A stretch of DNA of 57,968 nucleotides, counting the filler, from Dugesia japonica (lineage: Eukaryota), in the NCBI GenBank assembly GCA_001938525.1. It is 5 parts of 5 records of this genome, joined end to end, with 100 filler letters (N's around TTAATTAATTAA, not from the genome) between each part and the next. Parts side by side here need not be neighbours in the genome. Positions count along the whole stretch, not along the records: positions 18,497 to 35,403 come from MQRL01589739.1; 4 more parts are not named here. One strand, written 5' to 3'. A program made the translations under genes and the position numbers. The notes under the pieces were generated by a model. The model had not been told where the DNA came from and searched no databases. It saw only the letters and a program-made list of their open reading frames with translations. Numbering within the stretch: the stretch's first letter is position 1; the number at the start of each line of letters is the position of its first letter. Below, piece by piece: positions 6,517 through 51,900 of the stretch.

Positions 6517-8790
6517 CAGCCTAGCGTCGATATACCACAACTTCGATGTTCCGCTAAAAAAATGAAAATGTAATATCGACAATTTTTTAAAATTCAGAAG
6601 ATATAACACCATATTTTTCTGTCTCCATGAAAAATAAAAGAACAATTTTATCAATTATGGAAAAAAATGAAATATGAGAATTTGATGAAAATTATAAAAA
6701 ACTTGACAGATATCAAATTATTCAGCTATTTTTCAAAAAAATTAAACTAGAAAATTGCCAGCAGAACGATTTGCGATTTTAACAAAAATAGTTCACTATC
6801 GAGTTTAAACATTAATAAGAATGAGAAACAAGAAACATTGACACTTAATTAAGTACTGAAAAGTTTTTTTCTCATTGGATTAAATACGACTAAGCAATTT
6901 ATTTCACATAAATGATTTTTTAATACAATTTTAAGTAAAAATTTATTTAAAGCAAGCAGAGAAAAGCTGCAAAATTTGAGAAACGGCATAATTCGAAAGC
7001 GAACTATTACTGTGGCGAAATAGGTGATGTGAATATTGAGGAAATTGAGAGACAGCGAATTAGTTTCAAAGAATTGTTAAATGAGTATTCCATGTGTGAT
7101 TTATACCACTTTGATGAAACAACCTTATTTTATAAATGTTCGCCAACTAAAACCAAATCTGGTGAGCTAGTGAAAGAAGTGTATAAACGAAATGGCCCAA
7201 ATTTTACTAATATTGAGTTGAAATACGGATGTTTCGGATAAGAGACAATTATAGGTAGTTGGTGTTTAAGAAGGTTTAGTGTATCAACATTTTGCAATTA
7301 CTTTGCAATTTAAAAAAATTGAGTAACGTCAAAAGATTTCTCTAATTATTTATTTTGAGAAATTTGATAATAAAATGAGATTTCAGATATGAAATTTTGT
7401 TTTGATAATAAATAATGCTCATAAAACTATTGAAATATTAAATATAAAATTATTATTTTTGCCTTCAAAACCAACTGCAACCACTCAATAATGTACGAGG
7501 GGGGTCTGAAAAGTTTTTAGCCTAACCCATACAAAATATTTCAAAAAAGAGAAAACCAGTATTTTTATTCAATATGCCTTCATAGTAGAAATCCGCAGAT
7601 TGGGCTTAAAACCATGCCTTCGTAATTTCGATGACATCACTGTTTGTTTCGAAATAATTTTCTTTCAACATTGTTTTCAAATATAAAAACAAAAAATAAT
7701 CGGACGGAGCCAAATCAAGAGAATAGGCTGGATGTTCTAAAACTTGGAAACCAATATCTTGAATTGTATTCAATGTCTGTAAGACGGTGTGTGCAGGTGC
7801 ATTGTCCTGCAAAAATTGAATACCATTTCTTAACTTTCCAGGTCGTTTTGTTTTAATTTTTCTTTAACTTTGATCAATAAAGATGAATAATATTCAGAAT
7901 TTATCGTTGAGCTTTTTTCTAAAATGTCTATCATCACAATGCCTTTGCAATTAGAGAAATCAGTGGCTAAGACTTTCCCTGCAGACTTTTGTCTTCGGAA
8001 TTTTTTGGGTCGGGGCGATCCGGAATGCTTCCCCTCCATGGATTGTTGTTTGATTTCATTATCAAAGAAATGCAACCATGTTTCATCGACGGTTAGAATT
8101 TGAATAATAAATTTACTTTTATCCCTTGCAAAATGTGAAAGAATCACCTTTGAACTCTGCACTCGTCTTTGCTTCTGATCAGAATTCAGGCATTTAGGGA
8201 TCCATTTTGCAGAAAGCTTATTCATATCACAATCTTCGTGAATGATTTTACAAACACGTTCTTTGTATAGCTTTAAGGTCTCAGCAATAATTCTGATTGA
8301 AATTCGACGAGTTTCAAGAATCGTTTCGTGTACTTCTTCAATGTTCTCCTGAGTTGATGCAGAAATTGGTCGTCCGGATGCTTGTTTTGCCTCTCTCAAA
8401 TGATGATACCAATTTCTCACTGTTGCATATGTCGGGCATGTTTTCTTTAATGTTCTGCTCATGTCTTCATAAATTTATTTTTGGCTTAGGTCTTTTAAAA
8501 AAAGATATTTTATGACAGCCATATATTCAACTTTTTCAAAATTTTTTAATTCATCCGAAGTCATTAACTAAAACAAAAAATAATACTATTAATTAAATGA
8601 TAAAAATATAATAATCGATTTATTAATACTAAATAAAGAATGAATTTTAAAAAACTGTTGACAAAAATTCAAAAATATGTTTGGAAATGGGTCGGGCTAA
8701 AAACTTTTCAGACAGTCCTCGTAGTTATTCATTTGCTTAAGGTGCATTATCGAAAGAAATTTATTTAATCCGTTTATAGGTTTTTATAAA
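6517..8790 (+). mobile_element. pogo/Tigger (CENP-B-like DDE) transposon remnant, interrupted by a mariner insertion
   Basis: TA-CAG..CGATATA terminus-like sequence at 6515. Translations FEKRH..GEIGDV..DLYHFDETTLFYKCSPTKT and LLFLPSKPTATTQ (to 7490), resuming after the mariner as VIHLLKVHYRKK (8724-8760). Confidence 0.75.
7496..8721 (-). mobile_element. Near full-length mariner (DD34D) element with TIRs and TA target duplication; transposase pseudogene
   Basis: Left TA|CGAGGGGGGTCTGAAAAGTTTTTAGCCTAACCC and right GGGTCGGGCTAAAAACTTTTCAGACAGTCCTCG|TA are inverted copies. ORFs 7830-8462 and 7606-7812 carry WIPKCL, TVDETW, QDNAPAH and YSLDLAPSDYFLF. Length 1226 bp. Confidence 0.95.
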
Positions 8791-18496: not shown

Positions 18497-18913
18497 TTTA
18501 ATGAACATATGATGTTTCTAACATTTATTTATTTACTACATCTCTTCGTTCATCCTTCCAAATCCACTACGTTTTCTTCAATTTTGTTCTTCGTACGACA
18601 GCTACAGTCTTGAGAGTCACCAACACTGTGGATTCTCTCGGCGTATATCTAATAAATTTCGTCATCAACCGGTTTACACATGGGTCGTATACGCATCTAT
18701 ATAGATTCAGGATTTACTCCTCAAGGCTCTACAAACCCCGGGCACACATAGCCTATATATTTTTATATATGAGTGGTTTACTATAAAAGTTTTTAATAGT
18801 TAAGCATACGTAATTTGATTGGTTCTTTTTTTTGGTATATGTATGTAATTGTTATATTATATAAATTTCTTATATATAAACATTTACTATAAAAAATAAT
18901 AACATGAGTCATA

Positions 18914-19594
18914 CTAAATTTTTATATTTAGAAAAACACGATTAAGCATGTCAATTTTTACTTTTTTGAATTCTTCAACATAATGATTTAAATTAACATT
19001 AACATCTAAAGATATTTCATAAGAACATGGTATATATATGCATCTATTTAAAATGGCTTCTTTTGCACTAGATACATATGTCCAGATAGGTAAATTACCA
19101 CACACAATAAATGGCATAGATTTGAGAGGAACCCTAGGCCCATGTTTAACTCCGACACGGAAAAATGGAGAGTTCTCTATTAATTGTTTGAAATAATCGG
19201 CGTTTTTTGCATCAAGTGTTACCTCTTCACCAATTCCTATTTGTTTGTTAATGAGATTATCGAAGCAAAATTCAGACTGCATATGAATTAGAGAAAATGA
19301 TTCAGTGTCTAGCCCAGCACTAAATATCTTCATGAAAAGGGACTTACCGGCATTAGATGCCCCATCAAGTAAGATACAAGTAGTTTTGCCGGATTGTAGC
19401 AATAATACAAGGCCAATTGCACAGATACGATAATGGAGGGGATTAGATGCTTCCGTAAAACCGAGATTGTGTTTTTGAATAAAATTATCAATAATGTGAA
19501 CAAATTGCTTATTAAAATAAAAATGATTATTACTAATAAAATCTTGCAAAAATTTAGAAAGCGGCTCATAAACGATAAATTTATTAAAATCCAT
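18914..19594 (-). CDS. SF3 helicase, parvovirus NS1 / papillomavirus E1-like helicase domain
   Basis: Walker A CILLDGASNAGKS, FCFDNLINK, Walker B IGIGEE, B' FKQL..RVGVKH, motif C PFIVCGN and Arg finger EAILNRC. Intact 226-aa frame. Confidence 0.88.
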   Translation of the reverse strand: MDFNKFIVYEPLSKFLQDFISNNHFYFNKQFVHIIDNFIQKHNLGFTEASNPLHYRICAIGLVLLLQSGKTTCILLDGASNAGKSLFMKIFSAGLDTESFSLIHMQSEFCFDNLINKQIGIGEEVTLDAKNADYFKQLIENSPFFRVGVKHGPRVPLKSMPFIVCGNLPIWTYVSSAKEAILNRCIYIPCSYEISLDVNVNLNHYVEEFKKVKIDMLNRVFLNIKI

Positions 19595-19905
19595 TAAATG
19601 ATGAATAAACTAAAAATTGTTTATTATGTAACTAAACTACAATTAATACAACAAAATTGGGCCAATCACTAGAGTCTAAATTAAAAACTATCGTCATATT
19701 TCTTGACATTAGAGTATATACTAAGTGAGAGTTGATTATGGCACTGGGGACACTATGCGTCCATATCCACGGGAAGATGTTGATTTCCATTGGTTTTTTG
19801 GAGCAGGTGAGTAGTACGTTCCTTTACTTGGCTCATCTGAAGTCTGTACGGATTGTCTAATTTCTTCTGCTTACGCTAAAAAATAAAATTTTAATTTTGT
19901 ACATA

Positions 19906-20979
19906 TTAATTATTATATATTACTGGAATAATATCCATTTTAAAGTATAATAAATCGTTTAAGTAATGAATTTGTAATCTCCTATCCAGAGCTTCTTTAG
20001 TACAATTTAAAATATCGTATGGGTATAGCATTGATACATCATTAGTACATATTATGCGTGGCATTCTTTTAGGTATGCGTGCAGTACTATATTTTATGTC
20101 TACCACACTATCGTATTCGCAATCGTATAAATGTATAAGCTCTGTTATAGGCCATTTACGAAAATCTATATCGTCTATTACAATGCCATTATTGTTTTCA
20201 GTAATTAAATTAAATGATTGCCTGTTTGTTATTAGTACCGGTTTTGTACAATGTGCTAAAGCAAATGAGGTTTTGCCAATACCTGATGCAACTACAAATA
20301 CATGTGTGATGTCATCATATACATAAAAAAATGGATGCTTAAATTTAGTGTATTGTGGTTGAATTATTTCACCATTTTCCGATTTAAGATTTTCTAAAAT
20401 ACACTTTTTTTGTGTTACATATGTGAATGGATCTTGTTTTTTAAGTAATTCAATGGCTTCATTCATATTATTACAATTAAGGATATTATTCCATGCCATT
20501 TTTATTATATTTAAGTTTACTAGGTGTGCTAAAACTAAAACGAAGACCTCCGTGAACTCTTGTAGTGGGTTTGGTCACATAATCTCGAATACNNNNNNNN
20601 NNNNNNNNNNNNNNNNNNNNNNNNNNNNNNNNNATTAATCTATTTCTGGCGACCGAAAAATGAACTGACTTCTTAAATTCAATATACAGTTGTAAATGGC
20701 GGAAGCCTGATACTGACATCTCTTCTTGACCGATGAGATACTGCAATCCACTTTGTTTAAACAGTTCTCAATATCGATCAACATTGTCATGATATTGCTT
20801 ATACGATAGTGATACATGCCAATTTCTATGGCGAGAGTTGGGGGAGCATTTAAATTGGAGAATTGATTGTATGTCTGGGTACACATTATTCGAGCAGTTT
20901 CATTTTCTGAGTCCAATTTTCTGTTGGTACTAGAATCAGTACCGTCTCTAGTTCGTCCAATAGATGACACATTTGACAA
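19906..20979 (-). pseudogene. rep: CRESS-DNA-virus Rep (HUH endonuclease + SF3 helicase), copy 1, disrupted
   Basis: Motif I-like RHRNWHVSL (~20805-20835), motif II GQEE..SGFRHLQLYIEF, motif III RDYVTKPTTR, Walker A (V)ASGIGKTS, Walker B GIVIDD, DIKYSTARIP, motif C IICTN and ALDRR. One TGA at ~20768 and frameshifts at ~20495 and ~20880. Confidence 0.92.
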
Positions 20980-21064
20980 CGGCGAAACACTTCGGATATT
21001 TTCGTCGGGGTTGTATAATGGGACCTAATGCTCTTTGACCTATAGCAAATTACATTCCAATAAA

Positions 21065-21298
21065 TTAATTTATTACGAATAAAATAATACTACTTGATAA
21101 TAATTCTTGTATGGTGTTGGTAACACTATGACTTCCCGATTGCTTGGATTCACATTTTGTAGAGTTGTGTCTGCGTCGCTTAACGGGGGTCATCATATTG
21201 GTTATGAATTGATTTTCCTGTAGAACATTGTTTTGTTGATATGGTGGTGTGCGTATTCTCTCTAATAATTCTGATATAAAATGCAAATGAGATAGCAT
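21065..21298 (-). CDS. Short ORF with NLS-like TPVKRRRH; possible first exon of Rep copy 1
   Basis: Directly upstream of Rep1 on the same strand. Rep2 has a comparable low-complexity N-terminus with TPPKR. A GT..AG ~52-nt intron candidate lies at ~21025-21076. Confidence 0.35.
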   Translation of the reverse strand: MLSHLHFISELLERIRTPPYQQNNVLQENQFITNMMTPVKRRRHNSTKCESKQSGSHSVTNTIQELLSSSIILFVIN

Positions 21299-21314
21299 AA
21301 AATTTCAGTTAAAA

Positions 21315-22488
21315 ATGAAACGATTTCTAAAAACTGGATTTAAGTATAACAGACTATTGGATGACGTGGTGCCTGAGAAGAAAATTAAATTCTCTAAAAA
21401 TCAATTCAAATACACCAAACTTAATAATGAAGGTGATTCACACAGAAGACCTGGTGTGCCTATAATTGATAAATCTAATGGACTGAGTAATATTATCGAA
21501 GAAAAACTTATCAATCCAATAACAAATAAAATGAATATTAATACACCCAATCGTAAATTTGTATCTAAATGGAGTGATAGAGCAAAAAATTTAATTCCAA
21601 AATACAAAGCTACTAAAAAATTTGCACACAACCAAGAAGCTAATTTCTACACTGGTAATCATGTAGCATACGAGGGTGAATTTTTGTGGACCTGGCACAC
21701 GAATGGAATGGAGAGTAGATGAAAACAAGAAACCACTGCCTGTTAACAGTATAGACGAAGCGTGTTTAGCACATGATATAGATTATTCATCGAAAAAATT
21801 AACTGACAGACATGAGTCAGATTTGCGATTATTAGAGAATTTAGATTATATTGATGATGATAATCCAAAATTAACTTTAGAAAAGGAATTTGTTAGAAAA
21901 GTATTTCAATTAAAAATAATTGCTGAAAAACCGTTTTATATTTATAAAAAATGGCAAGAGGTTAAACACAATACTTCTTTCTGGGATTTCTTATTAGATT
22001 ATGTATTAAACAATGTTTTTAATTATTATTATGATCAATTTTTTGATAAAAATGGTAATAAGTTTAACCAGCTTATAGAAAAACAACATTTACAGACTAA
22101 AAGGGAGGAATTGTGGAATAATTACTCTCCAATGTCTCTAATAAGCAATTTCTTAATTAAATTATTTATGAAATATATTTATCCACATATAAAGGGGTTT
22201 ATGTTTTGGGTATTTGGAAAAAAAGAAGAGCATGATTTATTAAATAAACCGATGCATATTAAAGATACATTTGTGGGTTTTATAACTAAAAATATTAAGA
22301 ATGTGACTTTTTTGATCCCAGACATTAAAAAACGGAATATTGAATTTCTGAAAGTAACTCGTTGTTACACCAAATTCATTTTCGAGATTTTCGTTAATCA
22401 CTTTCCTTTTACACAAATATACTTCTGGGAAATTTGTTTTTATAATATTAATAGCCTCATTTTTATTATTTGCGTTGAGAGCATTTGA
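21315..22488 (+). CDS. Viral protein with parvovirus VP1u/adintovirus-type phospholipase A2 domain (frameshift at ~21676)
   Basis: NFCGPGT (Ca-binding loop) ... PVNSIDEACLAHDIDY (catalytic HD, DxxxxxHDxxY) ... RHESDLRLL. The basic N-terminal ORF 21315-21722 joins through one frameshift. Confidence 0.88.
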
Positions 22489-23099
22489 CCAAGCATTTTT
22501 TTTAGTTTTTGTTGGTTTAATATCATCATCAAAGCAATTAATACTTGGTAATCCGTATGAAACGGGCAATGTGCCAGTCATTCGTGTTTGGATTTTCGAA
22601 CAATACAATATCACAAATTTTTTGTCTTCTTTTGGCACTGGTTTCACGAACGGCACGCCCAACAAATCTTTCGCCCGATTGAAAGAAACTGCATTTTTGA
22701 ACTCACAATAGGCCTGTATATGTTTGTAACCGCCATCAAACACTGAAAATATATAACATATGTAATTATACTCATTACATACCTTAAATATTTACCTTCT
22801 TTCTGATATAAAATGTATTTGCAATTGGTTTTCCATAAGTTCACAAAATACTCTTCCTTTGTTGTAAATTTTCCCAACGGAAAGTTAAACGTGTAATTGT
22901 GGTGCCGTTTATTTTCTACATCTGGCACATTTGTGGTAGATTTAGCTGGGATTTCATCAGAATGTATTCTTTTGGGTGGTGTAGAGCTGCCATCACCAAT
23001 ATCCACATTGACTCTCTTTGTGGTGGAAGGATTACTTGTAGTAGATCCTCTAGATGACTTTATCGAGTTTTCATCATTTTTGTTGTCAAGGTCAGCCAT
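22240..23099 (-). CDS. rep: CRESS Rep copy 2 (spliced: exons 23099-22796 and 22742-22240), HUH domain intact, helicase absent
   Basis: RHHNYTFNF (I), YQKE|VFDGGYKHIQAYCEFK (II, after removing the 53-nt intron), LYCSKIQTR (III), then AWSNALN..EAINIIK..ENL aligning to Rep1. Similarity stops just before Walker A. Confidence 0.85.
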
Positions 23100-23114
23100 A
23101 TATTGTAGTGTTGA

Positions 23115-23567
23115 TTGAATATAGTGCCATTGAATATGGATGATAATTATCCATATTTTAATAATAGAAAAAGAATGGAATTTAAAATTATGAAAGAATA
23201 TTATCTAGCTGATAATGATTATGAAAAGAGGGATCAAAATATAATCGATAAATGGGGTTATTCGTACAATAGATATTATGATGCTTTTATATATGTAGGT
23301 AATAAAGATAATGAATTACCTAAGAAATTTTCTACTTCCAGAAAATTATTATCGAGATGGAAATTGGTTAATAAANATTATCCTAATGACCCCACAGAGG
23401 ATTTTTTTGATACTATTTATAATACAAAATATATTAATTACGCTAATGATAATGTACATCAAAGTATATTCTCCGGTGCAACTGGTATTAATATGAGAGA
23501 AATGTTTGGTATTAAAAAAGGTCTGGATTATTTATTTCCGAATGAAAATTATCGGTTCTTCTTTTAA
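23115..23567 (+). CDS. Orphan Y/N/D-rich ORF of the virus-like island (possible structural protein fragment)
   Basis: 150-aa open frame (first ATG at 23136) in very AT-rich DNA, divergent from Rep2. No recognisable motif. Confidence 0.45.
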   Translation: MNIVPLNMDDNYPYFNNRKRMEFKIMKEYYLADNDYEKRDQNIIDKWGYSYNRYYDAFIYVGNKDNELPKKFSTSRKLLSRWKLVNKXYPNDPTEDFFDTIYNTKYINYANDNVHQSIFSGATGINMREMFGIKKGLDYLFPNENYRFFF

Positions 23568-24779
23568 CGGAATTATCCTGGTCTCTGATTTAATATTTAG
23601 AATTCATTTTCAGTTGTTAAATAATATCCAGGAGCACGATCATCTTTAAAACTCATATCACTCGGATAATTTATAAATAAATTTAAATTTACTTTCTATT
23701 TCGGATAATAGTAACTGGAATAATATCAATCAAATAAAATTTTTGACCAATATAAACGGTGAGTGTAATCAAATTTTGTAAAATTATAACAAATTTCAAA
23801 AATAATTGGAGTAAAACTGAGCTCCTGGAAGCTCGTTTGTAAACTCTCCCGACTGACAAGTGATTAATTGACAAGTGATTTATAAAATCAAAAGTGATTT
23901 ATCAAATCGCGAAATACTAACAAAAGAAATCTGTAACTCGTTACAACTTAGAATTCGAACCAAGAAAATTATTGGTTGCNACTGTGAAATTTAAGTAATA
24001 CCCATGAGGGTAATAACGATGAATATTAAAATTAATTGCAATAATAATGATAGTAACCATGGCAATAAAATAATTTAGCCACAGTAATAACCATTATAAC
24101 TATAATATCAAGACGGAGTTATTTCAGGATCATTGTAAGAAATAGCTCATATATTACAAAATTTTTTAAAATTTTAGAGTATATTAAAATTATTATAGCA
24201 TATTAAAATTTATTCTTAAAATTTGTTAGTATGTGTTTTTAATTCAAATTTAATTAAATGGATTAAGATTGAAATTTAAAATTATTGAATATATATTAAT
24301 AAAATGTTTAAAAAATCATTTTCATAATTCAAATAGTAGCGTTGTCAATTAGGTCAGGTCTACATACCCATCAGAACAAAATAACACAAATCTTATCTAA
24401 CACTAATACACAAAGTATCTGTTATACTTATATTATTCACACCTGAACTAACTCTTTAATAGATAATGACCAGAAATCTTCTTTATTCTTTAATCAATTT
24501 TTAAAAATATTTATCGCAAATAATTATAATACATAATATTTAGGAAAAGTAATTTCGCTATTTGAGTATAAAAATCCAAATCGAAAAGTCATAATGAAAA
24601 ATTTTAACTAATCAAAATAATTACCATTTGCATTTACCACATTTTACTAACGTTCTAAGCGTTATTAATATTGCCTTTAAAGAAGTCAAAGTCGTGGGAT
24701 TCGATAAAAGAAGCAAATGCTTTTTTGAAATAATCTTGATTATTGAACTTATTATTTATTAGGAAATTGTCAAATGATA

Positions 24780-25515
24780 AGAAAAGATGGATATCTATTA
24801 TCTCGGGAGTAATGTGGGGTAAGTAAAGTTGCGTAACACAGCTCCTGTTATTTTTCGAGCGTTAATTTGGCGACATGTAGTCGAGTATTAGGGATTTGCT
24901 AATGCTGCTAGATTTTGATCCAGTTTTAAGTGATAAGCGTCGAGTTAACAAACAGATTACGATGTGATATTTTTTCCAGCTCCAAAGAAATAATTAATTA
25001 AATTAAAATAAACCATATTATAGACTGAAAGCATCTTGGTCCAATCACTCGCCAGTACATCTGGAATTGTCGAATAATACCCATTTCTCACCACAAGTAT
25101 GATTTTTTAAGGAGATCCTCATTTCTGTTTCTTAACAATTAAGATGAGCAAAACGATAGGCGATAAAATTTGATTTTCGCTTTATTTATGAGGGATCCAT
25201 TTTTGCAGTTTTGTAATTTTCCAATTTGTTGCAGGCAGTTATATTGTCTACACCGAGTATCTCTGAAACTGGTTGAGGGCTGGACTCGATAAGGGCTTTT
25301 AAACATTTATGTTCATTGCAGGTGGTCGTCATAATCGATCTTCATCTTAAACTCTTGGGTTTCGAGAACGAAATTTCCTGTTTGAACGCTGACCATCTCG
25401 TTTTCTAATTGAATACCTCCCGCACTTTTAACAAATATTTCACACAACCTTTGATGCATTTCTTTTCAATTTATATTCATACAATTGGCATGCTTGAATT
25501 TGCTTCGTAATCATG
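24780..25515 (-). mobile_element. mariner transposase remnant
   Basis: Fragments RKFRS..DEDR..RPP, WIPHK.SENQ, TCGEKWVLFDN and PHYS.D in mariner order. Confidence 0.75.
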
Positions 25516-25769
25516 GTTTGGTATAACGGGTTATTTATTATTTAAATTAGACTTTAACCTAGGAAAAGGTGAGTTAACTACAAAAATTCCAGAATTCTTT
25601 CCGAAACCTTCTCTTATTTCATAATTATATAACTAATGTTACTCAAAGAATCACTTTTGTCAAAATACAAAGGATAAATAATTTTGAACCCGAGCCCTAT
25701 GATTTTCAAGTATTTTTGAGGCCGAACCTAAAATTAAATATAAAAATTATTCGGTTTTTATTTATATAA

Positions 25770-26567
25770 AAGTTGAATATTTTCTCAAAAAATAATTTTA
25801 AAATAATTATCTCTATCAATTATTTATGCTGGAAATATTTCAAAAAAGATAACAATGAAAAAGCCAATTATAAGATTTATCTTAAAGAAATATCACACAA
25901 AGCATCTTCAATGACATTCTTACACTGTCACCTTGAGCATGTACATTCANTGAAGGTAATTCTAAACGATAATGAAATACTTGCAAAATTATTTAAAGAA
26001 AATATTGAAACTTTAAAAATAGATGCATTTTTAAAATCAGATGGTTTATCAATTTGACAAAATATGTAATTGTGAATTTATATCTGATATCTTAAAGACA
26101 TTAAAATTCATAATTTCAAAGAAGCTAGAGATATTATGAAAATTATACAACTTTATTACGATCAAGTAAAAACAACTAATATTCAAAATATCAAAAGCAA
26201 TCGATTAAAAAAAATCCAAGAATTAGTATATCAATTTTCTGAGTGGACAAGTTTAAGAAATCGAAGATTTTTGAATGTCCACATTTATTACAACGATTTA
26301 AGATAATTTAGAATTAATTCGGTTTAAATGTAGCTGCCAAATTGAAACTGCAATTCAATGACTTAAGAACGGTTTGGATAATATCAATGCATCATTTTTC
26401 ATATTTATTTTAAATCTCTGTTTTNAAAAATCAGGAAAATGAGAAATATCAATTTTAACTATTAATTTATTTTTTAGTATATTAGATTTCTCGAAAATTC
26501 TTGAGTATAACATTTTTATTTTTCATTTTCTCGAGAACGATAATCCATCGAGAAATACGCAACACTA
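25770..26567 (+). mobile_element. hAT-type transposase remnant with ..CAACACTA terminus
   Basis: BED-finger tail STxxL..HL..VH-like (SSMTFLHCHLEHVH), xEWTSLRNRRFLNVH (DEWTS first catalytic Asp region), and end CGAGAAATACGCAACACTA. A related end lies at ~27570-27613. Confidence 0.55.
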
Positions 26568-26596
26568 ATTATAATAAACGAAACTGAAAATTATTA

Positions 26597-27229
26597 CACA
26601 ATACAAACAATCATTTAAAATCAAATAGACTCATTATAATAATTACTTAGATGAATATATCAACCATAATTGGTAGGCAACTCCTGTTGATACTAAATTT
26701 CCTGTATTGCATTCAATTAAATTAATAAAAAATATTCCACCATTTTTCAAAAATTCACTAACAATTTTTTTCATAGCTGTTGTATCTAATATTTGAATAT
26801 CTTTTTTTTGTCTAAAATAATTTCACTCGAATAATCCAGATGAAAATTAAGATTAATTGTGATAATGAGACAATGATCAATCCAATCCAATCCAATAAAA
26901 ATAATTTCTTATTAATCATTTTGTCACTGTAGTAGATGCTACTACGTCCAAGAACTCACCAACTCATAAGTTTCAATTGGGAATGAGTAGGAAATATAAG
27001 CTTGAAAAAGTCCAAAATAATAAAATTACTGATAAATTGATGTTGAACATGAAATGCAACATATTTGAGTCTCACACATCATCAATGATACTAGGAATTT
27101 CTTTCATAGTCAGAAAATGTATATGCATTTGGTATCAACAGGAGTTGCGTACCAATTATGGTTGATATATTTTTTTAACTAATCATTATTATAATGAATC
27201 AATTTGTTAAAAAAAATGATTGTATTGTG
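26597..27229. mobile_element. MITE-like element with ~100-bp imperfect terminal inverted repeats
   Basis: ATATATCAACCATAATTGGTAGGCAACTCCTGTTGATAC (26655-26693) is the near-exact inverse of GTATCAACAGGAGTTGCGTACCAATTATGGTTGATATAT (27132-27170). Homology extends outward to CACAATAC / GTATTGTG. Confidence 0.8.
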
Positions 27230-27719
27230 TTTTATATTTGTATTTCAAAGGAATATTTTTCAAAAATAAATTGTAAAATGAACAATTAATTAATGTTATT
27301 GTTTAAAAATACTTTTATAAGAAATGTAATATTAGGTTTTATTATATACATTTAATATATTTAAAATTACTATTATTCATTTAATAATTTTTTATAGCGG
27401 GATAACGGTTACAGAGTTACTAAAACATTCTCTTAAAAGTCGAAAATGAAAAATTAAATTCATTTTTTAAACAATTTGAAAGTGTATTCTATTAAAATCA
27501 ATGCAATAAATTGTAAAATTCATTTTAATAATAATTAGTTGAACGAATATATCATCCATAGGATTTTATTTCTCATTTTCTAGAAATAATCAATCGAGAA
27601 ATGAACAATACTAATTCAAACTAATTTTTTTATTTATTGTTTTATACATTTTACTAGTTATATTATAATTACAATACAAGTCACGAAACCAGAGAATAAA
27701 AATTCTTCTATTTGTAATT

Positions 27720-27960
27720 ATTTTATCCAAAATGACAATAAAAATGTCGTCTTTTGTAACGAATGTGGGCACAAATTTGTTTGCGCAAAAGAAAACACCT
27801 CAACCATTCGTCGACATTTTTTTATGTCCGTACCATCGACAAGGGTGAACATGATAACTAATTAAAGAACGTTTAAATAATTGATGCTTTTTAGTTAAAA
27901 TTTCAGTTGATAAAACAGTTTCAAAATTAGCTGTAATTGATAGATTTTATTCGTCATTCA
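27720..27960 (+). mobile_element. BED zinc-finger (hAT transposase N-terminus) remnant
   Basis: VFCNECGHKFVCAKENTSTIRRH; VSKLAVID. Confidence 0.55.
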
Positions 27961-30849
27961 TCATCAATAGTCATGATGCTACCATCAAGTTTAAACTGTA
28001 TTGTTTCCTATTGATTAATTTAATCGAGCATCAAATGTTTAGGGTTTTACAAACCCGTAGGCTAATACAGTAACCTTTTGCTTAAAATTATGCATATTAA
28101 TTAATTACAATACCAATTCAAGAATAAAGATTCATTACAATTATTAACTATTTAACAAATCTCTTCAATAAAAATACTTAAAAGAAGTATTTGGATTCAC
28201 AGTAGACTTTCCAAAAAGAAGATCAGAATAATTTTTGAAAACAGATTTACAACTCACAAATTCACATAATTAAAAAATTTTACGTTCAACAAAAAAATTT
28301 CAGTATACACCAGAGCCTCGAGTTGCGTCGTTAATATGTTCCAAAGAAAACACGGCGCAATTCGAATTGTAATGTTATATACATATTTTTATATAATTGG
28401 TTTCGATGAAATCTATATATGTTTAAATGAAAAAAATTATTGGCAATAATAAATTTCATTAAAGCCACTACACCATGAATGAAATTTTATTTTAAAGAAA
28501 TAATATTTCATAAAATATAATTTATAATGAACATAAATTTATAGATTTCATTAAAATAAGATAAGGCTTCGATCAAAACAAAACAAAATTTATTTGAAAA
28601 AAAAGTTCAAATTTTCGACAATAGTCTTCTTTCGATCAATGGTTAAGTCCAAGAATTATTCTCACAATAATTGTAATTATAAATTTATAGAATTTATTCA
28701 GAGTCTAATTTGTAAGTTTCAATCAGATTTAGGTTATTTTTCTCTTCAATAAAATTATGAAGTGTCAATATAATAGCATTTTAGCCAAATAATTTTTTTA
28801 ACAGCTTAAATAAGTATATACAGCTTGTGCTTTTTAACTACCTTTGCACTTCGATTAGCATCTGTATCCCAGCACGAAATATTTCTAATGCTTCAGATAT
28901 TAATTTAATTGCTGAACGTTAAGTTTTTTATTTCTGGTACTTCTAGGAAATTGTCATCATAGTCGTAAATATTTTGATACATTTCAATAAAATCTGCGGC
29001 GCTGACATTTAAAATCTCGTAGAAATCTACTCTGCTGAATCCATCGAAATGAGTTGTTTGAGTTAAATTAACTATTTCTGGTCATATTTTTCTTCACACC
29101 ATTTATACATGAGAATTTTCCTCCACATACCGTTTATACATGATAATTTTGCTTCTGCTCAAGAATCACGCTTTCAATAAATTGTAGTTTTTCCCAAATT
29201 GTGCCCTAGTTTTTTCTTTATCCACGTCGGTAGCTTGTAATAGTCTGTAGAATATAATAAGATTTAAAATTTGAAATTATTCCTTGATATATTGGTTGAA
29301 TTTTTGAAGTTGTGTTTATAGATAAATAAAAATTTGACATCATCTGATAGGAACTTATCTTCAAAATATTCCATATTTCAAAATCGATTAATTAAGGCTT
29401 AATTTTAAAAATCAAAGTTAATTGGTTATTAGGATCACCTAAACAAATAACTCAATAATTAAAAAGTTTTAATAATTATAAAAATTAATTTTCAAATAAA
29501 TTTCCTAAATTGCCAACGATAAAGTGAAAAACTTGCTTAATATTAAATGAATATAAATTAGATTTTACAAATAAATGTTTTTTTTATAAATATTGTTATA
29601 AAAATTGACAAATGAGTAAGTTTGTTAAAAGTTATTTGATTAGAATTTGTAATTAGTATTTAGTGAACGAAATTATTTATCTAGAATAAAATATTAATTT
29701 CTGTTCATCTGTTCATTATTAATTTATATTAATATTAATTTTAATTTCTGTTCATCAAAAGAATTTATTGTAAATTNNNNNNNNNNNNNNNNNNNNNNNN
29801 NNNNNNNNNNNNNNNNNNNNNNNNNNNNNNNNNNNNNNNNNNNNNNNNNNNNNNNNNNNNNNNNNNNNNNNNNNNNNNNNNNNNNNNNNNNNNNNNNNNN
29901 NNNNNNNNNNNNNNNNNNNNNNNNNNNNNNNNNNNNNNNNNNNNNNNNNNNNNNNNNNNNNNNNNNNNNNNNNNNNNNNNNNNNNNNNNNNNNNNNNNNN
30001 NNNNNNNNNNNNNNNNNNNNNNNNNNNNNNNNNNNNNNNNNNNNNNNNNNNNNNNNAAATATATTTCTTATTTACACTTAACATTTAAACCAATCTTCAA
30101 GTTTACTTATTTAACAGTTTCCAATTTATGATAAGCAAATAATAATACTGGGTTGTAATATAAATTTTCGTGATTTTTTAATAAAAATTTTAAACATTCA
30201 AAATTTTAAAAAAATAAGTTAATCAGTAATGCAATCTCCGCTATTAATTGTGACTTATTTTCACCTTTCCAATACGCGATCGATACAATTACATTGGAAT
30301 TTAATAAGACCGGACTCGAAGAATTTGTTGAGTCACTTTGTTTATATCTTTGTCACTGTATAAGGTAATTGACAACATATGTTTAGACAGTGAACGCAAG
30401 GCGATTATCATGAAACTCCTAGCGACCATTGTTATTGTTTTAGGATTAGGGGAAATTAATTACTAATATAATTGCAACTATCCACCCTAAATTTAAGCAT
30501 CTCATCATCGAAGGATAGTACTATGCCTATTTTATTTTCAATATTTTTCTATTTTTTAACTATACAAAACTAAATTAATAATTTTCTGCTTGTGATGCCG
30601 TGTTATAGAAGAAGACTGATAATTACCAACTTTTATTAAAAACAAAAACTGCGCTTTTTATTCGTTATGTTAAAACAACAATTTATTCAATAATAAAATG
30701 TTTTATATATATTCATTTTAAATTGTAATAAATAGATATATTTATATGTGAGAGTGATTCTAAAATAACAGGAAAAATTACATAAAGCGCAATAACTGTA
30801 AATAATATTTTTCTTTTCAGTGTATAAACTTTCTACATCAAGACACTTT

Positions 30850-31200
30850 TGCATCCGATGTTGCTACTTTTCTAAACCTTCCCTGTAAAAATCAGTATCA
30901 GAATGTTGATTTGAACCAATACAGAGCTGCTTTGGTTGCATAATATATACATTCACACATAATTAATTCAGTTGGAATAAAAAATAATCACATGTAGCTA
31001 AATCTAAACTATCGAGTAGATGACAAAATTTCCCATCTAAATTTCACCAAGACACACCTTGATCGACGTGATGCATGTGCTGGCCCATTTTCATAATGGA
31101 AAATGATCTGCTGATTGATATTATTCCGTATTGCAGGCCTCAATTTTTGCAACACTGTTAAGTAATATATACTTTTTGCCATTCATTAATGATTTGTTCA
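30850..31200 (-). mobile_element. mariner transposase C-terminal remnant
   Basis: RPAIRNN..IIFHYENGPAH and DLATCDYFLF. Confidence 0.7.
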
Positions 31201-31655
31201 TTACTCCATTCAAGTTTAACCAATAATTTGATATTTGCACGAATTTCAACACGCAAATTTTACATTTAAAAAAGTAGGCTTTCGAAAAAAACAATCATCA
31301 TCACGAAATTTATAGACAAAATTTTTATATATTATAATTTCAAAAAATTTATAAGCTTTAATAATTAGATTGCTACTCTAAGAATGACTACTCCATTCCT
31401 GTTAGTCTTTGACTAACTCGCACGCACACACATCGATTATGTTTAGAAAAATTCTTGTTAGCGTTTGAATATTTAAATCATAAAAACTAAATGAATCCAT
31501 AAAAGTTTATTTAAAGCCCTAAGATAAATGAATAAAAACTATTATTTAAACAAATTTACTTTTATTCGTTTTCTGAATTTTATTTAAATTAATTTTTAAA
31601 AAATCAATTAGTTCTTAAAACAAGATTATTAAAAAAATAATAGATATCCGTATAA

Positions 31656-32340
31656 CAGTGGTTTTCAAACTTTTTGCTCAGCCTCCTTCAAAAACGATAG
31701 AAAAATCACTTAACCGCAGTTTTTATTATCATAGCAAAACATTAAATTTATCCTGCCAATCATTTCAATGATAACAAGACATATCCATCATCTAATAATA
31801 ATATATGTTTAAGAAAATTTGTTTTTTATTAATAATAGTTTCATAAATTTTTATCATTTCAGGGTATTCATTTAATACAATTATTAAATACTGTCAAAAT
31901 CTCACAATAACAAGATAATGCAAACATTTTTACTTAGTATAATCAAATGTTACTCTGTAATTAGCCTTTACTCCATGATTCTAATGAGATGTGAGCTANC
32001 CTTTTTGAACAAGAAAAATGTATTCTTGGTGAGATTTTGGATATACACTCGAATGTCATCTTCAACATAAAAACTTGATCTGAATTTTCACTTAATCACA
32101 ACCAAATTAGTTTTATCGCGTTGTTAGTAATCTTTTGTGAAAAATTTATTTGTAATTGTATAAGTGTTCAGTATATATTTTTGATGCAATAATAATCAAC
32201 TTTTTTTAACGAGATTTTTAGTATGTTCTAATATTGGTTTTGCATCGATTTTAATTTATTAATATTAACAAGAATTTATTAATAAAATGACGTTTTTCCC
32301 AGAAACGCAAATAAACTAAAATTTGAGGATTATTAATCAG
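31656..32340 (-). mobile_element. hAT Buster/Charlie-like element 3' end
   Basis: TIR CAGTGGTTTTCAAACTTTTT at 31656. The minus-strand C-terminus RSSFYVEDDIRV..SKISPRI..AHISH* resembles the Buster/ZBED5-type RxRLxVExDLR..H.SH end. Confidence 0.65.
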
Positions 32341-34149
32341 TGGTTTTTTAAGGCACTATTGCATTTACTTGTTTTTCTTAGAAATGGTTGCTAACCAAAT
32401 ATGGTTTGCATTCGTATCTGCATATTCTTTGCAATTCCTTGTATGAAAGTCCACAATTTAGCTCGGCTGTATTGTTTAGCAGTTATTCTTGGTCGCTTTA
32501 ATGAAAAATCATGTTTTTCTGCAACTTCAGATACAGCACCATACAACTTCTTAAATTCAGCATCTGCTTCTGCTCTTATATATCTGGTTTTAATTCATCC
32601 AATCCAATCTCAAAATAGTTATTAATATCTGGACAAATAAGTGAATGTTAGAAAGTTCGGAAATAATATTTTCAAAATCATACATTTCTTCTATTAACAA
32701 TTCCAATTGAGAGATTTTTGATGAATTTCCATTGTTAATATTTTGTAACAAAATAAAATGAAATACAGCTTGGAATTGAAAGTCAACCTTTTACAGGCTC
32801 TTAGTTACGTATACTCCTGTTTTTTCTTGGAGAAAAATACTGGTTTTCATAATTAAATTTCATGTCAATTAGAATTTTTCGCAATATGGTTTTAATTGCA
32901 ACACAACATTTTCGTGATTATTTTCTGCGTGATTGAGCATATACGTGTTTACATTTATACTTTCCATTAACTTTTTAGATTTAATAGAAAACTGATAACA
33001 AAACTAAAATTTCAATCCATTTATATATTAATTTTTTTGTGTTAATTATTGTCCTCTAATTTTTCTAATTCAATTGTAATCTGTAACGTATTATAAATAT
33101 TATATTAAAAATTTTATTTCATAAATTATAAATATTTACTACTTACAAAGAATTGATAATAAACTAACATTCATTGAATCATATCTACTTAAATTGACAT
33201 TAAAGAATTATCAGAGATATAATTTTCATGGCAACCGAGCACATGTGACAGACATATTTTATTGACAACTCTGCCTTCAGTTTTTGAGTACTAATTGTAA
33301 TTTGTGACTACATAATATCTTTTCATTAATGTAAAGTTATTAACAAATGCTCTAATCAAAACTTTTTCATTAAAACAATTTGATTCTTTCAATATCTTCC
33401 AAATTTTCTCTAACCTTTTTAACATTGAAATTTTCTGTTAATAATAATTTAGTTCTAATTAATATTAAAAAAAATTATTTTATTGAATGATAAAAAAATA
33501 CTTAAGGCAATTCTAAATTTCGAATACTTAATTTATATTTACTTCAAAACAAACTTAGATTTACAAAAAAAATTCAATACTTAATTCTTTATCTTAAAAT
33601 TTAAAAAACTAAAAACTATAAAAAACATTTAAAAGTTCAAATTAACAAAACAGTATAAAATTCAAATTTGATTTTAGTAAATTTGTCATTAATTAGCAAT
33701 ATTATTAACTAGAATTTATTAGTATATGTATTTTTATTGGGGATGCATGTTATTTTGTCATTCTTGCTCAATAACACTTCACTTTTTCTTCTTTTTCTCA
33801 CTTATTCTTTTCGTATTCTCTATCTTTCGATTAGTATACTTTATTCTTGCACTTAAATTATATTACATCATTATACGAATTAATTTATTATAAAAATTCG
33901 AATATTTATATTCCTATATATTTCGAATTGTTATATTCCTATAGGATACAATCTGTAAATAACTGTAATAATTTTGCCTAATTTTTAAATTTATAATCTG
34001 AATATAATTATTAAATGATTGTTGAATTATTAAGGACAAATTATTGATAAATTTAAAGTAACAATATATAATTACTCTAATATTACATATATAACGCACC
34101 CGTTATAAAGATAAAAGACATTTTATTTAAAAAAGACATACTATCATTT

Positions 34150-34560
34150 AAAATTTTTATTTAAAAACATTTATTTAAGATAGGTTCCATTTGAAGCTAC
34201 GACCTTAGACCATTAATACAACTAACGAATTCCTAGAAAGAATTTTGACTCTTGAAGCAATCTAGCTATCCACTTAATTGAGCGAAACAAATGCTAATCC
34301 GAAGGAGTAATATCCGGGGGATATAGATTGTGATCTAAGACTTCCCAGTTTACTCATTAGTAGTTCTTAACAACCGAATGAACGCGTTTATCATGTTGCA
34401 AAAATATCTTGGTAATTTTGTTATTTTTTCTGAAAAAGCTCGCTTTAAACGAATAAATTGCAATCTATAGCATTTTCCCGTTATGGTTGTAACGAATTCA
34501 CCTGGCTTCACCGAGCTGCTTTGTGTTTTGGATTTTCATAATGTATCCATTTTTCGTTTC
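34150..34560 (-). mobile_element. mariner transposase remnant (internally deleted)
   Basis: KWIHYENPK, FLQHD and NWEVLDHNLYPPDITPSD.HLFRS. Confidence 0.75.
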
Positions 34561-35403
34561 TAGTCACAATTAGATACAAAAACATTTTCTTTGCTGTCAG
34601 TCAATCTATTTTATTTGATAATCGTCTAACATTTAGACATTTCTATAGAACTGACAGATTTGAAATGTTACTATATTATTATTTTCATTTTAGTTCATTT
34701 TAGTTCACAAAATTAGTTCCCTTCATTTTAGTTCACAAATGTTGGTAAATGTCAAATTTTGAATGAATCATAGACATATTAAAATAGTATCAGAACATTA
34801 ATTATTCTCACAAAACTTTATTTATGAACAAGACCACTGTCATTATCTTCAAATATCTAAATGCATCAACTATTTCTAATTTCACAAACATTTAATAAAA
34901 TGAGTAGTCTTGTTTCCTGTTCAACTCGATCTGATGAAAAATTCAAGTTACCTATGGATGAAATGCAGTTAATTTTAACTGGATACTTCGCCGAACTAAT
35001 AAACTGGATCTTAGGTTATTTTTGCCTCTTAACAGTATGAACAAAACTAGTATTAACAAATATGAAATTAGAAAAAAAATTAATTAGTGTAATATCTGCA
35101 CAATTACACATCAAATTTTCAATTTTACCACATTGATGAACGTAACCTGCTTCTCAAAAAATTTGTCTCAAATCATAAAATCCTTCTAAAGACGAGATGA
35201 TAGAACGCAGGGCCAGGGTTTCGGAACACTTTAAATTTAGTTATCCACAATGGACTGAGTATCACTGACATGTTTAATAGAAGAACTATCAAAGTCAGCA
35301 CTTAGATTGTTCATTGTGGAATTGATAGTTCACTATAGACGAATAGTTACAGACTCTAATATTCATATAAGTGAAAAATTCCTTATACTGAATGGATATT
35401 TTT

Positions 35404-37091: not shown

Positions 37092-40000
37092 TTAATTTCT
37101 ATAACCAAAAGGTAATGTTGTAATTCCATCATCTAAAATAATTCTTTTATCATCAAATGGATCTAAAGCAATTTTTTTCTCTTCAATTAAATAGATATCG
37201 TGATAATTCGACATTAATCTAAAATTATTCGAAAAAATTGTTAAACTTTTATTTAAACAATCTTCATAATCCTTTGTGTTCATTTTCTTTTGTGAAACTA
37301 CAGTTATTCCTTTTAATTTTATTACTTGTTTTAAATTATCTTTTTCGTAAGAATAGCATTTAGATTTTAAAAATAATGCTTTAGTTATAAAATCTTTCCC
37401 TTCTAATTCATCTTTAAATTTACATAAATCCGTTGGATGAATATATTCATTAAATTTACTAACTTCTTCTATTGTTGAATTAATCGGGACAACTATTTCT
37501 AAAAATATCGAATCACAATCAGTATATATAATTTTCCAATCATTTATTCTTTGATCAATACAATCGTAAATAAATTGATACATTATTAATTTCGATAATT
37601 CTANNNNNNNNNNNNNNNNNNNNNNNNNNNNNNNNNNNNNNNNNNNNNNNNNNAATTATTCGAAAAAATTGTTAAACTTTTATTTAAACAATCTTCATAA
37701 TCCTTTGTGTTCATTTTCTTTTGTGAAGCTTCATTTATTCCTTTTAATTTTATTACTTGTTTTAAATTATTTTTTTCGTAAGAATAGCATTTAGATTTTA
37801 AAAATAGTGCTTCAGTTATAAAATCTTTCCCTTCTAATTCATCTTTAAATTTACATAAATNCGTTGGATGTATATATTCATTAAATTTACTAACTTCTTC
37901 TTCTATTGTTGAATTAATCGGGACAACTATTTCTAAAAATATCGAATCACAATCAGTATAGTGAATTTTCCAATCATTTATTCTTTGATCAATACAATCG
38001 TAAATAAATTGATACATTATTAATTTCGATAATTCTAATATAGTAAATCCAATAAAATTNAATTTATCGTGTAAAACTTTATTTCTTAATAAATGTACAG
38101 CAACAACATCTTTACTAAATATTTTTTCCGATTTAAAGTTAGGTTTGGAAACATGACTTTTATAAGTCGTATAATCATAAACTATTTCAATATTTTGTCT
38201 ATTTCTTACATTTTCTAATGTTTTTCCATAAAAGCATTATTCATTAATTTATAGAACGTATCTCCAAATTTATCTCGATTTCTTTTAGCAATATTTCTTT
38301 CCTCAATATTAAAATCAATATAACACTTTAACCAATTCGATTTATAATAAATTAATTTTCTATGAATTTTATTTATTTTTATTCCGTGATCAACATACCA
38401 ATCTAACATTCTTCCTTCAATAACATAATTGAATTTATTATTTTGATTTAAAATTAATTTTTCATTTGGTTTATAATTATGAGGCTTAAAGTTATTTTGA
38501 TATTCGCCGAATTGATTTTCAGTCGGTTTATATTTTTCAGGGAGAAAAGGATAATATATATTTTTAATTTCATTTGGATATTCTAAATCAACTTCATAAA
38601 CAAAACCGGGATTATAATAATAATTAACGATTGTATTATTTCTGGGATTATATGCATTAGAAAGAGTTTTTTCGTAAATTAAATTATCATCCCAAATCAT
38701 TTTTCCAGCTGGTAATTCTTGAATCATTGCTGATGGATATAAACTATTCGCATCGTAATATAATAAATAATTTTCTTTATAATTATTTAATTCTTCAATT
38801 GTATTAACGTTTCTAGTTAAAATATTTTTATAAGCTTCANNNNNNNNNNNNNNNNNNNNNNNNNNNNNNNNNNNNNNNNNNNNNGAAGAAACCCCACCTC
38901 TTACTCCTTTTTCAAAAAATAATAATTTATCATAAGAATCTTCTTTATAATGAATTAATTTTACTTTTGTATATTTCAATCCAGCCAACCAAATTAATCC
39001 AGGCGTTGAATAACAATAAGAGGGATCGATTCCGTATTTTTCATAACATTCTTTTCTAAATTTCTCGAATAGATCTGTTAATATTAAAACGTCGATTTTT
39101 AAATATTTCATCGTATAATCGTACATATTTCTACAATTTAATTCATTCCAATTATCTTGAGATTTTTGATAATCTTCAACAGAAATATTCGATTGTTTTA
39201 ATTTTGAATAAAATTTTTCATGTTCAGGTAATTGAGTTTCTCTCATTATATTAATTATATCATCAAAACTAGAATTATATTTAATATATTCGTATGGATA
39301 AATTCCTTTCATATTTCCTAAATTATTAGCTGTTAGAAATTTACAATCTTCAATTTTTAAAGTTGAACCCATAAATTCTAAACTATATGGCATACAAAAT
39401 CGAAATGTATCTAAAATTCTAATATAACCAATTTGTAATGAAATATATTCTTCACCAGTTTTAGTTAATCGTTTTATTTTACAGGATTTAACATATTCAG
39501 ATTTAAGTAAATCTTTAAATAATTAATGAATATCATATTTTGAACCATTATAAAAATACATTGGAACAAAATTAACTTTTTTAGCTTTTAAATTACATTG
39601 CTTATGAGCTGCTCCTCTAAATTTTCCATTTAAATGATCGTGATCTCTTACTTTACAATTAATATATTGTTTATTATTATGAATAAACCTTCTTGTAGTT
39701 AAATTTAATTCCTTTTCACAATAACATCTTGTTGAATTAATAAAATTAATTTCATCTTTTTCGGTCATTTCTATTGGATAATTAGTTTTTAATAAATTTT
39801 TAAAATTAACATCAAGTTCTTCAAAAAATTTTACAAATTCTGTTACTGCTGTTTCTCCGAAGAATTCATAATATCTTGATTCTACTAATTCTGGATAATC
39901 AGAAATGATTTGAATGCCAAATCACATTGCTTCTTGTTTAAATAATTTATTACTAGTAGAATCTTGATTAATTTTATTAAATGCTTCAAAATTTGAATAA

Positions 40001-41754: not shown

Positions 41755-41785
41755 AACTTTATTTTTTTTTTATAAAATATTTTAT

Positions 41786-46676: not shown

Positions 46677-49809
<3,133 letters not shown>

Positions 49810-51183: not shown

Positions 51184-51900
51184 TTAATGCCTCATACAAC
51201 AATATCTCNCAGTAATTCTTAAATTGCTTTGACAAAATTTTAAAATTTGAAATTTCAACAGTCTCATTGCAATTACTTTTATTTTAATTATTATGCTCAG
51301 CAATATTACTACCACCAACAAAACGATTATGCTCTTGAACCCTTGTAGACAGATGATGGACAGTCTCTCCAATGTATGTGGCATCACACCCATTACACCC
51401 AAACCAATAGATGTATGGGATTTATTAACAAACCTATTAATAATCATATGTGAAGTAGAAACAATTTTCAATAAAGGAAAATCCTTAGCAGCTTTTCGTA
51501 TCGAATTCTTAAACTTCTTGAAACCTTCAGGATAAGGAATCGATAAAATAAATGTTTTATAAAAGTTTGATAAAGTGTTATCAGGTTCAGGATTATTCAA
51601 CACAGTTTCAGTCTTTTTATCGATATCAATAATATTACCAAACAATATTTTATCAATTGTCTGCAAAGTCAACGAATTTAAAAATTGTTTCTTATATCCA
51701 TTTGCTTGCAGTAACTTTAATAAATGTTCAATATTTTTAATGGATTTAGAATGAGTAGAGGACTATGACCAAGAACGAAATACTAAATCCTTTATCATGT
51801 TAATTTTATAAGTAGAATCACAAAAACTATTTGGGGTAGCATACAAGCCAGTACCACTTTTCTTTCTGTAGATTTCAGTCTCATAATATGTTGATTTTCT
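51184..51900 (-). mobile_element. Penelope-like element 3' fragment (RT thumb + GIY-YIG), second divergent copy
   Basis: TEIYRKKSGTGLYATPNSFCDSTYK..LQANGY, LSIPY and YWFGCNGCDATYIGETVHHLSTRVQEH; homologous to 4200-4740. Confidence 0.88.

Follow-up and report, generated by a model that had tools for sequence, protein, structure and literature searches.

A frameshifted, truncated phospholipase A2 gene of Polinton type in an integrated virus of Dugesia japonica, probably part of a split parvovirus-like capsid gene

Described systems closest to the locus

Buck et al. (PMC11071296) described a group of parvoviruses with an auxiliary CressRep beside NS1, to which the parts of the article considered here give one sentence, and the supplement rows shown hold ten such genomes, including Parvo3071, 3580, 3723, 3867, 3960, 4218, and 4688. 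The virus family studied here, found in the genome of the planarian Dugesia japonica, is like this group in having a CRESS-type Rep, a short helicase-only NS1, and a VP; the topology given for the group in those rows is linear. In addition, the Reps of Parvo3071, 3723, and 4688 share GKT.FALAHF, Walker B DD, IKY/VKY, and ICVN-type motifs with the family when compared by eye. The two differ in that no PLA2 gene is named in the CressRep protein lists seen and those genomes are 3.5-5.0 kb against ~6 kb in the present family, which is ambisense and has a split VP and a PLA2 ORF of 600 aa. Terminal hairpins are not described for the group in the portions of PMC11071296 examined. In gene content (CRESS Rep, helicase-only NS1, and VP) our element agrees with the CressRep group, and it most likely belongs there as a form that acquired a PLA2 of Polinton type, a kinship judged from motifs read by eye and not from a tree. 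The supplement portions seen also name unsubmitted 'uParvo hydra' contigs, and the present family may already have been annotated in that study.

The passages of PMC10267136 considered describe Scindoambidensovirus (Acheta domesticus densovirus) as ambisense, with a PLA2-bearing VP1u in a separate upstream ORF spliced to the capsid ORF, as in the present family; it has a canonical NS1 and a YLGPGN-type PLA2, whereas the family has a CRESS Rep, a separate helicase, and a Polinton-type PLA2. PLA2X of adintoviruses and Polintons was defined by Starrett et al. (PMC8502044), who, in the sections considered, suggest that parvoviruses gained genes from Alpha adintoviruses. Like the family PLA2, it has the H.PGY.FCGPGT loop, a long spacer, and H-D-x-x-Y (PMC8502044; PMC11071296 supplement, as far as seen). 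In these sources PLA2X stands in a PolB/integrase virus, where it is either a small gene or fused to an integrase, whereas the family PLA2 lies inside a 600-aa ORF upstream of a single jelly-roll capsid and is without DUF5679. No PolB, rve integrase, packaging ATPase, or double jelly-roll capsid was found among the ORFs of our element or of its complete sibling L034, and PLA2 is the only component common to the family and Polintons or adintoviruses.

The planarian element PEVE reportedly carries a Rep and an E1 helicase. E1-like helicases are described for DENSOV_HM of Hydra and for PIVE and PEVE of planarians by Liu et al. (PMC3198968, section 8), and DENSOV_HM was suggested there to come from a new virus family. 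Compared by description only, these are like the family in being integrated or extrachromosomal, in their terminal inverted repeats, and in their PPV_E1_C-like helicase; that section mentions neither a capsid nor a PLA2 for them. The Oomyviridae (Lineavirales) share linear ssDNA, a CRESS Rep, and a PLA2-containing capsid protein with the family, but likely have stramenopile hosts, and the passages considered mention no second helicase (PMC12451638, PMC13426907). One Oomyviridae-like contig (L163) stood in for a named reference of that family in our comparison; its R-rich capsid did not match our capsid profile, and its Rep matched with E 1.7e-7. Nothing further on the family was found in the parts of PMC10433990 considered. 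Within the literature searched, which excludes ICTV proposals, Repbase, and subscription journals, no account of a virus combining a CRESS Rep, two helicases, and a PLA2 ORF was found.

The window copy and its siblings

The window, the whole stretch of 57,968 nucleotides analyzed here, consists of five joined stretches of D. japonica DNA (assembly GCA_001938525.1; genome G000), and the PLA2 element lies within the third, 18497-35403 (contig G000:C589739). The PLA2 core at 21679-21920 on the plus strand matches PF08398 (E 3.5e-8, over the curated cut-off), the match being borne by an open frame at 21667-22488 (+). It retains the GPG loop, H-D-I-D-Y as the catalytic H-D-x-x-Y, and the downstream Asp, confirming the domain with intact catalytic HD that the first-pass annotation had reported. 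The G-x-G calcium loop, H-D-x-x-Y, and downstream Asp are the features expected of a viral PLA2 (PF08398). Ahead of the core, 21315-21680 (+) encodes the basic N-terminal part of the ORF, 40% identical to aa 1-115 of the 600-aa ORF of L034; it starts at the ATG at 21315 and has 25 K/R against 12 D/E in 122 codons, in line with the ~115 basic residues noted earlier. This basic frame overlaps the downstream PLA2 frame, and the frame changes at ~21680, so that the core is in another frame than the start codon. The break had been placed at ~21676 and proposed for a read check; contigs from four public runs (X1, X2, X6, X7) span the point with no indel there among the rows listed, and the frameshift is thus considered real. 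Near 21736, the allele of one run is slightly longer. In the downstream frame, the first ATG comes only after the calcium loop, and therefore the window copy cannot make the enzyme.

The ORF continues at 21921-22296 (+) in an aromatic-rich tail that reaches sibling aa 329, with 51% identity to L034 aa 122-329. With 27 F/W/Y and 4 Gly per 123 aa (21931-22299), its composition bears out the aromatic, Gly-poor part of an earlier description that also called it helical-looking. An Atlas search with the sibling tail gave no match, and the 600-aa sibling ORF has no transmembrane helix (best 19-residue hydropathy 0.84). The His of GNHVAYEG, first taken as the first His of the motif, is the wrong residue: the siblings hold a short pre-loop stretch that the window copy is without. 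Nor does the gene end at 22300, as first reported, since the ORF is cut there by ~800 bp of inverted foreign Rep and resumes. The insert, at 22297-23100 (-), is a 5' Rep fragment with a predicted intron from a PLA2-less lineage of the same family (81% identity to L075 Rep aa 1-158), and both of its junctions are spanned by X1 and X2 contigs. The resumed tail at 23148-23579 (+) corresponds to aa about 349-477 (tblastn E 4e-12 and 6e-12). The element stops at ~23580, ahead of where the siblings have their capsid gene; right of 23579 the contig gave no further match to the virus family, and tblastn of the sibling capsid against the window gave none. At the junctions and the frameshift, read depth is close to the flanking level, consistent with integration as a single copy. 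A contig of run X7 joins the intron edge of the second Rep (22793) to 21266, upstream of the PLA2 start, which is possibly another rearranged allele.

On the other side of the PLA2 gene, a CRESS-type Rep with HUH nuclease and P-loop helicase lies at 19912-21250 (-), recovered by tblastn to the L034 Rep in two frames, with a frameshift near 20497, an assembly gap at 20593-20633, and an approximate start. The proposal that the PLA2 sits in a Rep-encoding element thus proved right. A broken homologue of a 179-aa ORF that overlaps Rep in another frame lies at 20704-21298 (-), in three tblastn pieces and three frames; the L034 version of this ORF had no Pfam match. Farther left, 18917-19594 (-) encodes a stand-alone E1/NS1-like SF3 helicase of 226 aa (PF00519, E 5.6e-7), without a nuclease domain, open in the assembly, and 82% identical to that of L034. 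A terminal repeat remnant with the inner half of a terminal hairpin follows at 18676-18913 (blastn to L033 5835-5899, 78%, and to L084 and L032); it shows no fold (z -0.37), against z -21.7 for the L033 hairpin. The window copy is a dead, frameshifted, cut-off fragment of an integrated virus. Elsewhere in the window, stretch 4 carries a Polinton-type PolB in pieces with an endonuclease VII-like region (38215-41334 (-); PF03175, E 2e-13) and a C2H2 zinc-finger ORF (41449-41769 (-)), and 4373-6118, 7830-8474, 48551-48859, and 51184-51762, all (-), hold reverse-transcriptase-like fragments and an alpha-tubulin-like piece (both by eye), and a mariner transposase fragment (PF01359).

A search of the genome with the PLA2 frame returned about a dozen close relatives and then a long tail of Polinton PLA2s. 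The whole layout is found in L034 (6210 bp), where the helicase and Rep lie on one strand and the 600-aa PLA2 ORF and a 446-aa ORF on the other, flanked by perfect inverted repeats of 59 nt. At one end, L033 folds into a Y-shaped hairpin whose stem has 61 bp (-81.9 kcal/mol). The L034 repeats, the L033 hairpin, and the window remnant agree with a linear genome with terminal hairpins, as in Parvoviridae/Densovirinae. The capsid gene lies directly 3' of the PLA2 ORF in 10 of the 14 contigs with that ORF, and follows in 7/10 contigs fetched through PLA2 matches alone, two others stopping at a contig edge and one being a fragment. The first-pass annotation had noted that no capsid follows and called the context non-parvoviral. 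The absence is true of the window copy only, where the capsid is missing because the copy is truncated, and the siblings have both hairpin ends and a parvovirus-like capsid after the PLA2 ORF, likely spliced to it.

The genome gave 97 matches for the 446-aa capsid ORF and 151 for the helicase, which are matches and not copy numbers. The lineages L075-L080, L085, and L089 carry Rep, helicase, and capsid genes but no PLA2, and a single ORF of 842-1104 aa covers both their N-extension and the capsid. In L075 (2201-5167) and L077 (2604-5915), basic, partly repeated N-extensions of 530-650 aa without a Pfam match are fused to the capsid. The stand-alone helicase gene follows the capsid in L038, L081, L082, and L093 and follows Rep in L034, L033, and L077, so it has moved between genome ends. 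Between copies, the PLA2 ORF has dN 0.11-0.36 with dS above 1, indicating purifying selection and an origin of the copies from diverse, functional viruses before integration. L034, whose integration is putative, has open frames and lower depth in X1.

The 446-aa ORF had no match in Pfam. In the Atlas feature search, Denso_VP4/VP1_2 ranked highest (0.96), with a recognition value that fell short of the tool's threshold. With a profile built from 27 natural pieces, 49 of the 50 matches in PDB were capsid chains, the best with E 2.9e-5. Confidence in the AlphaFold model is low (mean pLDDT 40; 29 from the single sequence), and searched with Foldseek it returned only parvoviral proteins among the PDB rows shown and nearly only these among the BFVD rows shown. 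VIA ranks 1-20 were likewise parvoviral (Z 7.8-11.7; rank 1 with rmsd 4.1 over 184 aa), against 7.5 for a circovirus. These partly independent lines agree, and the downstream gene of the siblings is predicted to encode a parvoviral-type single jelly-roll capsid. Word-based protein searches found no capsid relative and no PLA2 ORF relative of near length. The capsid profile gave 24 unnamed proteins, of which the 10 checked had no Pfam match. Unnamed relatives from other samples include P0001 (E 3e-47), P0003 (E 2e-24), and P0025, which clusters with P0002 (E 2e-29), indicating that the capsid lineage exists beyond this genome. Searches for related loci in viral contigs (capsid, helicase, Rep, helicase alignment) and in metagenomes with P0025 found none.

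Eight PLA2-lineage copies (L034, L035, L007, L036, L038, L081, L092, L047) have an AG immediately before the capsid ATG and a GTA 40-45 nt upstream of that ATG, at a codon boundary of the PLA2 ORF (phase 0). The interval is 83-89% AT and varies in length between copies; the phase by frame length is tabulated for seven, L047 being too short to show it. The PLA2-less 500-aa ORF of L082 is without this phase-0 pattern. The interval is likely an intron that joins the PLA2 ORF in frame to the capsid, with the PLA2 ORF as the VP1-unique exon. Three RNA runs, of which 25%, 25%, and 6% were read, gave 8, 1, and 3 reads on L034, nearly all fitting only in part and none supporting the splice. For a T=1 particle, moreover, an extension of 590 aa would be exceptionally large. 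Short AT-rich introns are also predicted at two Rep sites (L034, L033, L075, L077, L079, L080, window 22740-22800); the one at the motif II region is absent from the window's first Rep, L036, and L092.

Against PDB, the family Rep profile matched PCV2 and nanovirus Reps best, weakly (E 0.003), and it matched nine IMG/VR CRESS contigs, themselves found by a Rep motif, with up to E 6e-42. The fetched parvoviral loci gave no match to it, and the nine contigs had none to the helicase, capsid, or PLA2 profiles. The stand-alone NS1/E1-like gene, of 221-256 aa, is helicase-only; its profile matched papillomavirus E1 best (E 2.7e-6), then NS1 and AAV Rep, and among the fetched viral loci it scored highest to parvoviral NS1. 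The nuclease and SF3 helicase that one parvoviral-type NS1 would combine are thus found apart, the nuclease on the CRESS-type Rep, which places the element outside Parvoviridae by this definition.

Type and probable origin of the phospholipase

The GPG-to-HD spacing is 28 residues in 9/10 family rows, 14/14 rows from Polintons of this genome, and 90/100 database rows, counts that are partly built in because the database PLA2s were retrieved with a profile containing Polinton rows and the parvoviral rows with a fixed-spacing pattern; the window copy has 24, and the gap in AAV VP1u is 11 residues shorter. The window core reached a local score of at most 175 with Polinton-type domains, against 63 with the 31 parvoviral ones. 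GPGT and a Cys pair occur together in 10/10 family rows and 0/31 parvoviral rows. The two Cys, one in the loop and one three residues before the catalytic His, are both present in 37 rows, both absent from 131, and mixed in 9, these rows being related and not independent; the family has the two Cys, whereas parvoviruses have neither. The pair presumably resembles the C29-C45 disulfide of secreted PLA2s.

Trees were built on 77-80 columns, and the phylogeny is accordingly underpowered. In the first (L122, which is not a PLA2, dropped and two thirds of database rows omitted), the family groups with DUF5679-PLA2 proteins at 99/95. In the second (L094, L112, and L142 also dropped and all groups but the family thinned), this grouping has 96/96 and takes in six PLV rows; the family is not one clade, with IMG/VR PLV rows inside it. 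Parvoviral PLA2s form their own clade (100/99), with the family outside, in both best trees. AU tests on 77 columns rejected neither family and parvoviruses as one clade (p 0.50) nor nesting with two densovirus-like sets (p 0.075 and 0.148, lnL being lower by 31 and 19). In the trees, the family PLA2 lies nearest to DUF5679-PLA2 proteins that come from other samples. It is not sister to the Polintons sampled from this genome, though AU did not reject that placement (p 0.08).

The Polinton/adintovirus type assigned in the first-pass annotation is therefore borne out by loop length, similarity, and trees. Its statement that the genome also carries adintovirus-like elements holds too: there are many Polinton PLA2s (3270 first-look candidates), and integrase and ATPase neighbours were seen. 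Judged from these sequence comparisons, the family PLA2 was likely taken from Polintons or adintoviruses and not inherited from parvoviruses, and the transfer would have been into the family. The same annotation had regarded the internal position of the domain as unusual. This idea was dropped, since the motif lies 172-206 residues past the first Met in 9 of the 29 parvoviral ORFs listed.

In Polintons of this genome (L042 5728-6945, L043 5040-6224; P0053), PLA2 is often in one ORF with an integrase-like domain, and a PF08398 and PF00665 fusion occurs in database proteins too. L160 holds a near relative of the DUF5679-PLA2 proteins between packaging-ATPase-like and penton-like ORFs (by eye). 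Viral contigs of 2.3-3.5 kb (L097-L099, L102-L110, L155, L159, L163-L170) carry a short stand-alone GPGT-type PLA2 gene, which in L163 and L164 is beside a CRESS Rep. The occurrence of the CGPGT-type PLA2 in small CRESS-like contigs and PLVs as well suggests that the domain moves often.

Alternative readings and significance

Taken together, the feature is probably a frameshifted, truncated PLA2 gene of an integrated ~6 kb virus, in which a VP1-unique N-terminus with a PLA2 acquired from Polintons or adintoviruses was spliced to a parvovirus-like capsid. Replication would begin when the CRESS-type Rep nicks the terminal hairpin and would follow the rolling-hairpin mode, aided by the separate SF3 helicase, which may package the genome too. 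The right-hand cassette would yield the major capsid protein from its own ATG and, after removal of the 40-45 nt intron, a predicted minor protein of ~1040 aa with the basic N-terminus, PLA2, a helical spacer, and the capsid. Virions would be single-stranded. The PLA2 may be an active phospholipase that, by analogy with VP1u in parvoviruses, breaks the endosomal membrane at entry. In its working, the virus resembles an ambisense densovirus with a split VP, and we class it neither as an element lacking a capsid nor as a typical densovirus.

The 600-aa protein could be a separate non-structural lysis or exit protein, as proposed for vpORF3 of the Acheta domesticus segmented densovirus. The PLA2 ORF has its own stop, its tail is without capsid features or an Atlas match, sister lineages do without PLA2, and the passages considered of PMC10267136 and PMC13426907 offer precedents. 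However, the phase-0 GT-AG interval is preserved in eight copies despite length changes, and the position of the PLA2 ORF, ahead of the capsid gene, is that of the Scindoambidensovirus split VP and not that of vpORF3, which comes after the capsid gene (PMC10267136, as far as seen); we regard a separate protein as unlikely. An ordinary ambisense densovirus insertion with a diverged VP1u PLA2 is quite improbable. The first-pass annotation had held that a PLA2 nested in densovirus VP1u together with a parvoviral capsid fold would mean such an insertion. The predicted capsid fold went that way, and the hairpin ends, ambisense layout, split VP, and NS1-like scores of the second helicase point to it as well, with the AU tests not rejecting the nesting. 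In the best trees, however, the PLA2 is not in densovirus VP1u and stays outside the parvoviral clade, the GPGT with Cys pair is not parvoviral, and the NS1-like gene is helicase-only. The nuclease on a CRESS-type Rep, matching CRESS Reps and no parvoviral locus, largely excludes the insertion.

The first-pass annotation itself favored the acquisition of a membrane-penetration gene by a Rep-encoding element. Read as the capture of a Polinton PLA2 by a Rep element or transposon lacking a capsid, this view is consistent with the capsid-less window copy, the PLA2 type, and the many genome copies suggested by the helicase matches. It was rejected for the family and is very improbable, since the capsid gene follows the PLA2 ORF in the siblings and has 97 matches in the genome; dS above 1 with low dN also points more to diverse viruses that integrated repeatedly than to transposition in the recent past. 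That the layout and frameshift are assembly artefacts, or that the family contigs are free virus and not integrated copies, is extremely improbable. The assembly is fragmented with N gaps, two Rep lineages lie adjacent, and the open frames and lower X1 depth of L034 might suggest free virus, but contigs from independent runs bridge the frameshift, the two junctions, and the right flank with a depth close to that of the flank, on which ground an artefact was rejected. The right junction and its flank also recur, with 95% identity, in a second contig (C222781).

The integrated virus with a split, PLA2-bearing capsid gene remains our preferred reading. Its parts have precedents, and their combination was not found in the literature examined. 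To what is known of the metagenomic CressRep parvoviruses, the family copies add the genome of a host, the hairpins at the termini, and the places of predicted introns, together with about 100-150 diverse fragments. They also bear on the source of the parvoviral entry phospholipase, gene gain from Alpha adintoviruses having been suggested in the sections considered of Starrett et al. (PMC8502044). The family shows a Polinton-type PLA2 ahead of a parvovirus-like capsid gene, with PLA2-less sister lineages in the same genome. A more far-reaching reading, rather unlikely though conceivable, makes the family a relic that connects CRESS viruses, Polintons, and parvoviruses: a virus with hairpin ends, still dependent on a CRESS Rep and equipped with a free NS1/E1-like helicase, in which a Polinton PLA2 is being joined by way of an intron to a parvoviral capsid, parvoviral VP1u descending from that very event. 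If the gain was independent, the VP1u design would have arisen at least twice.
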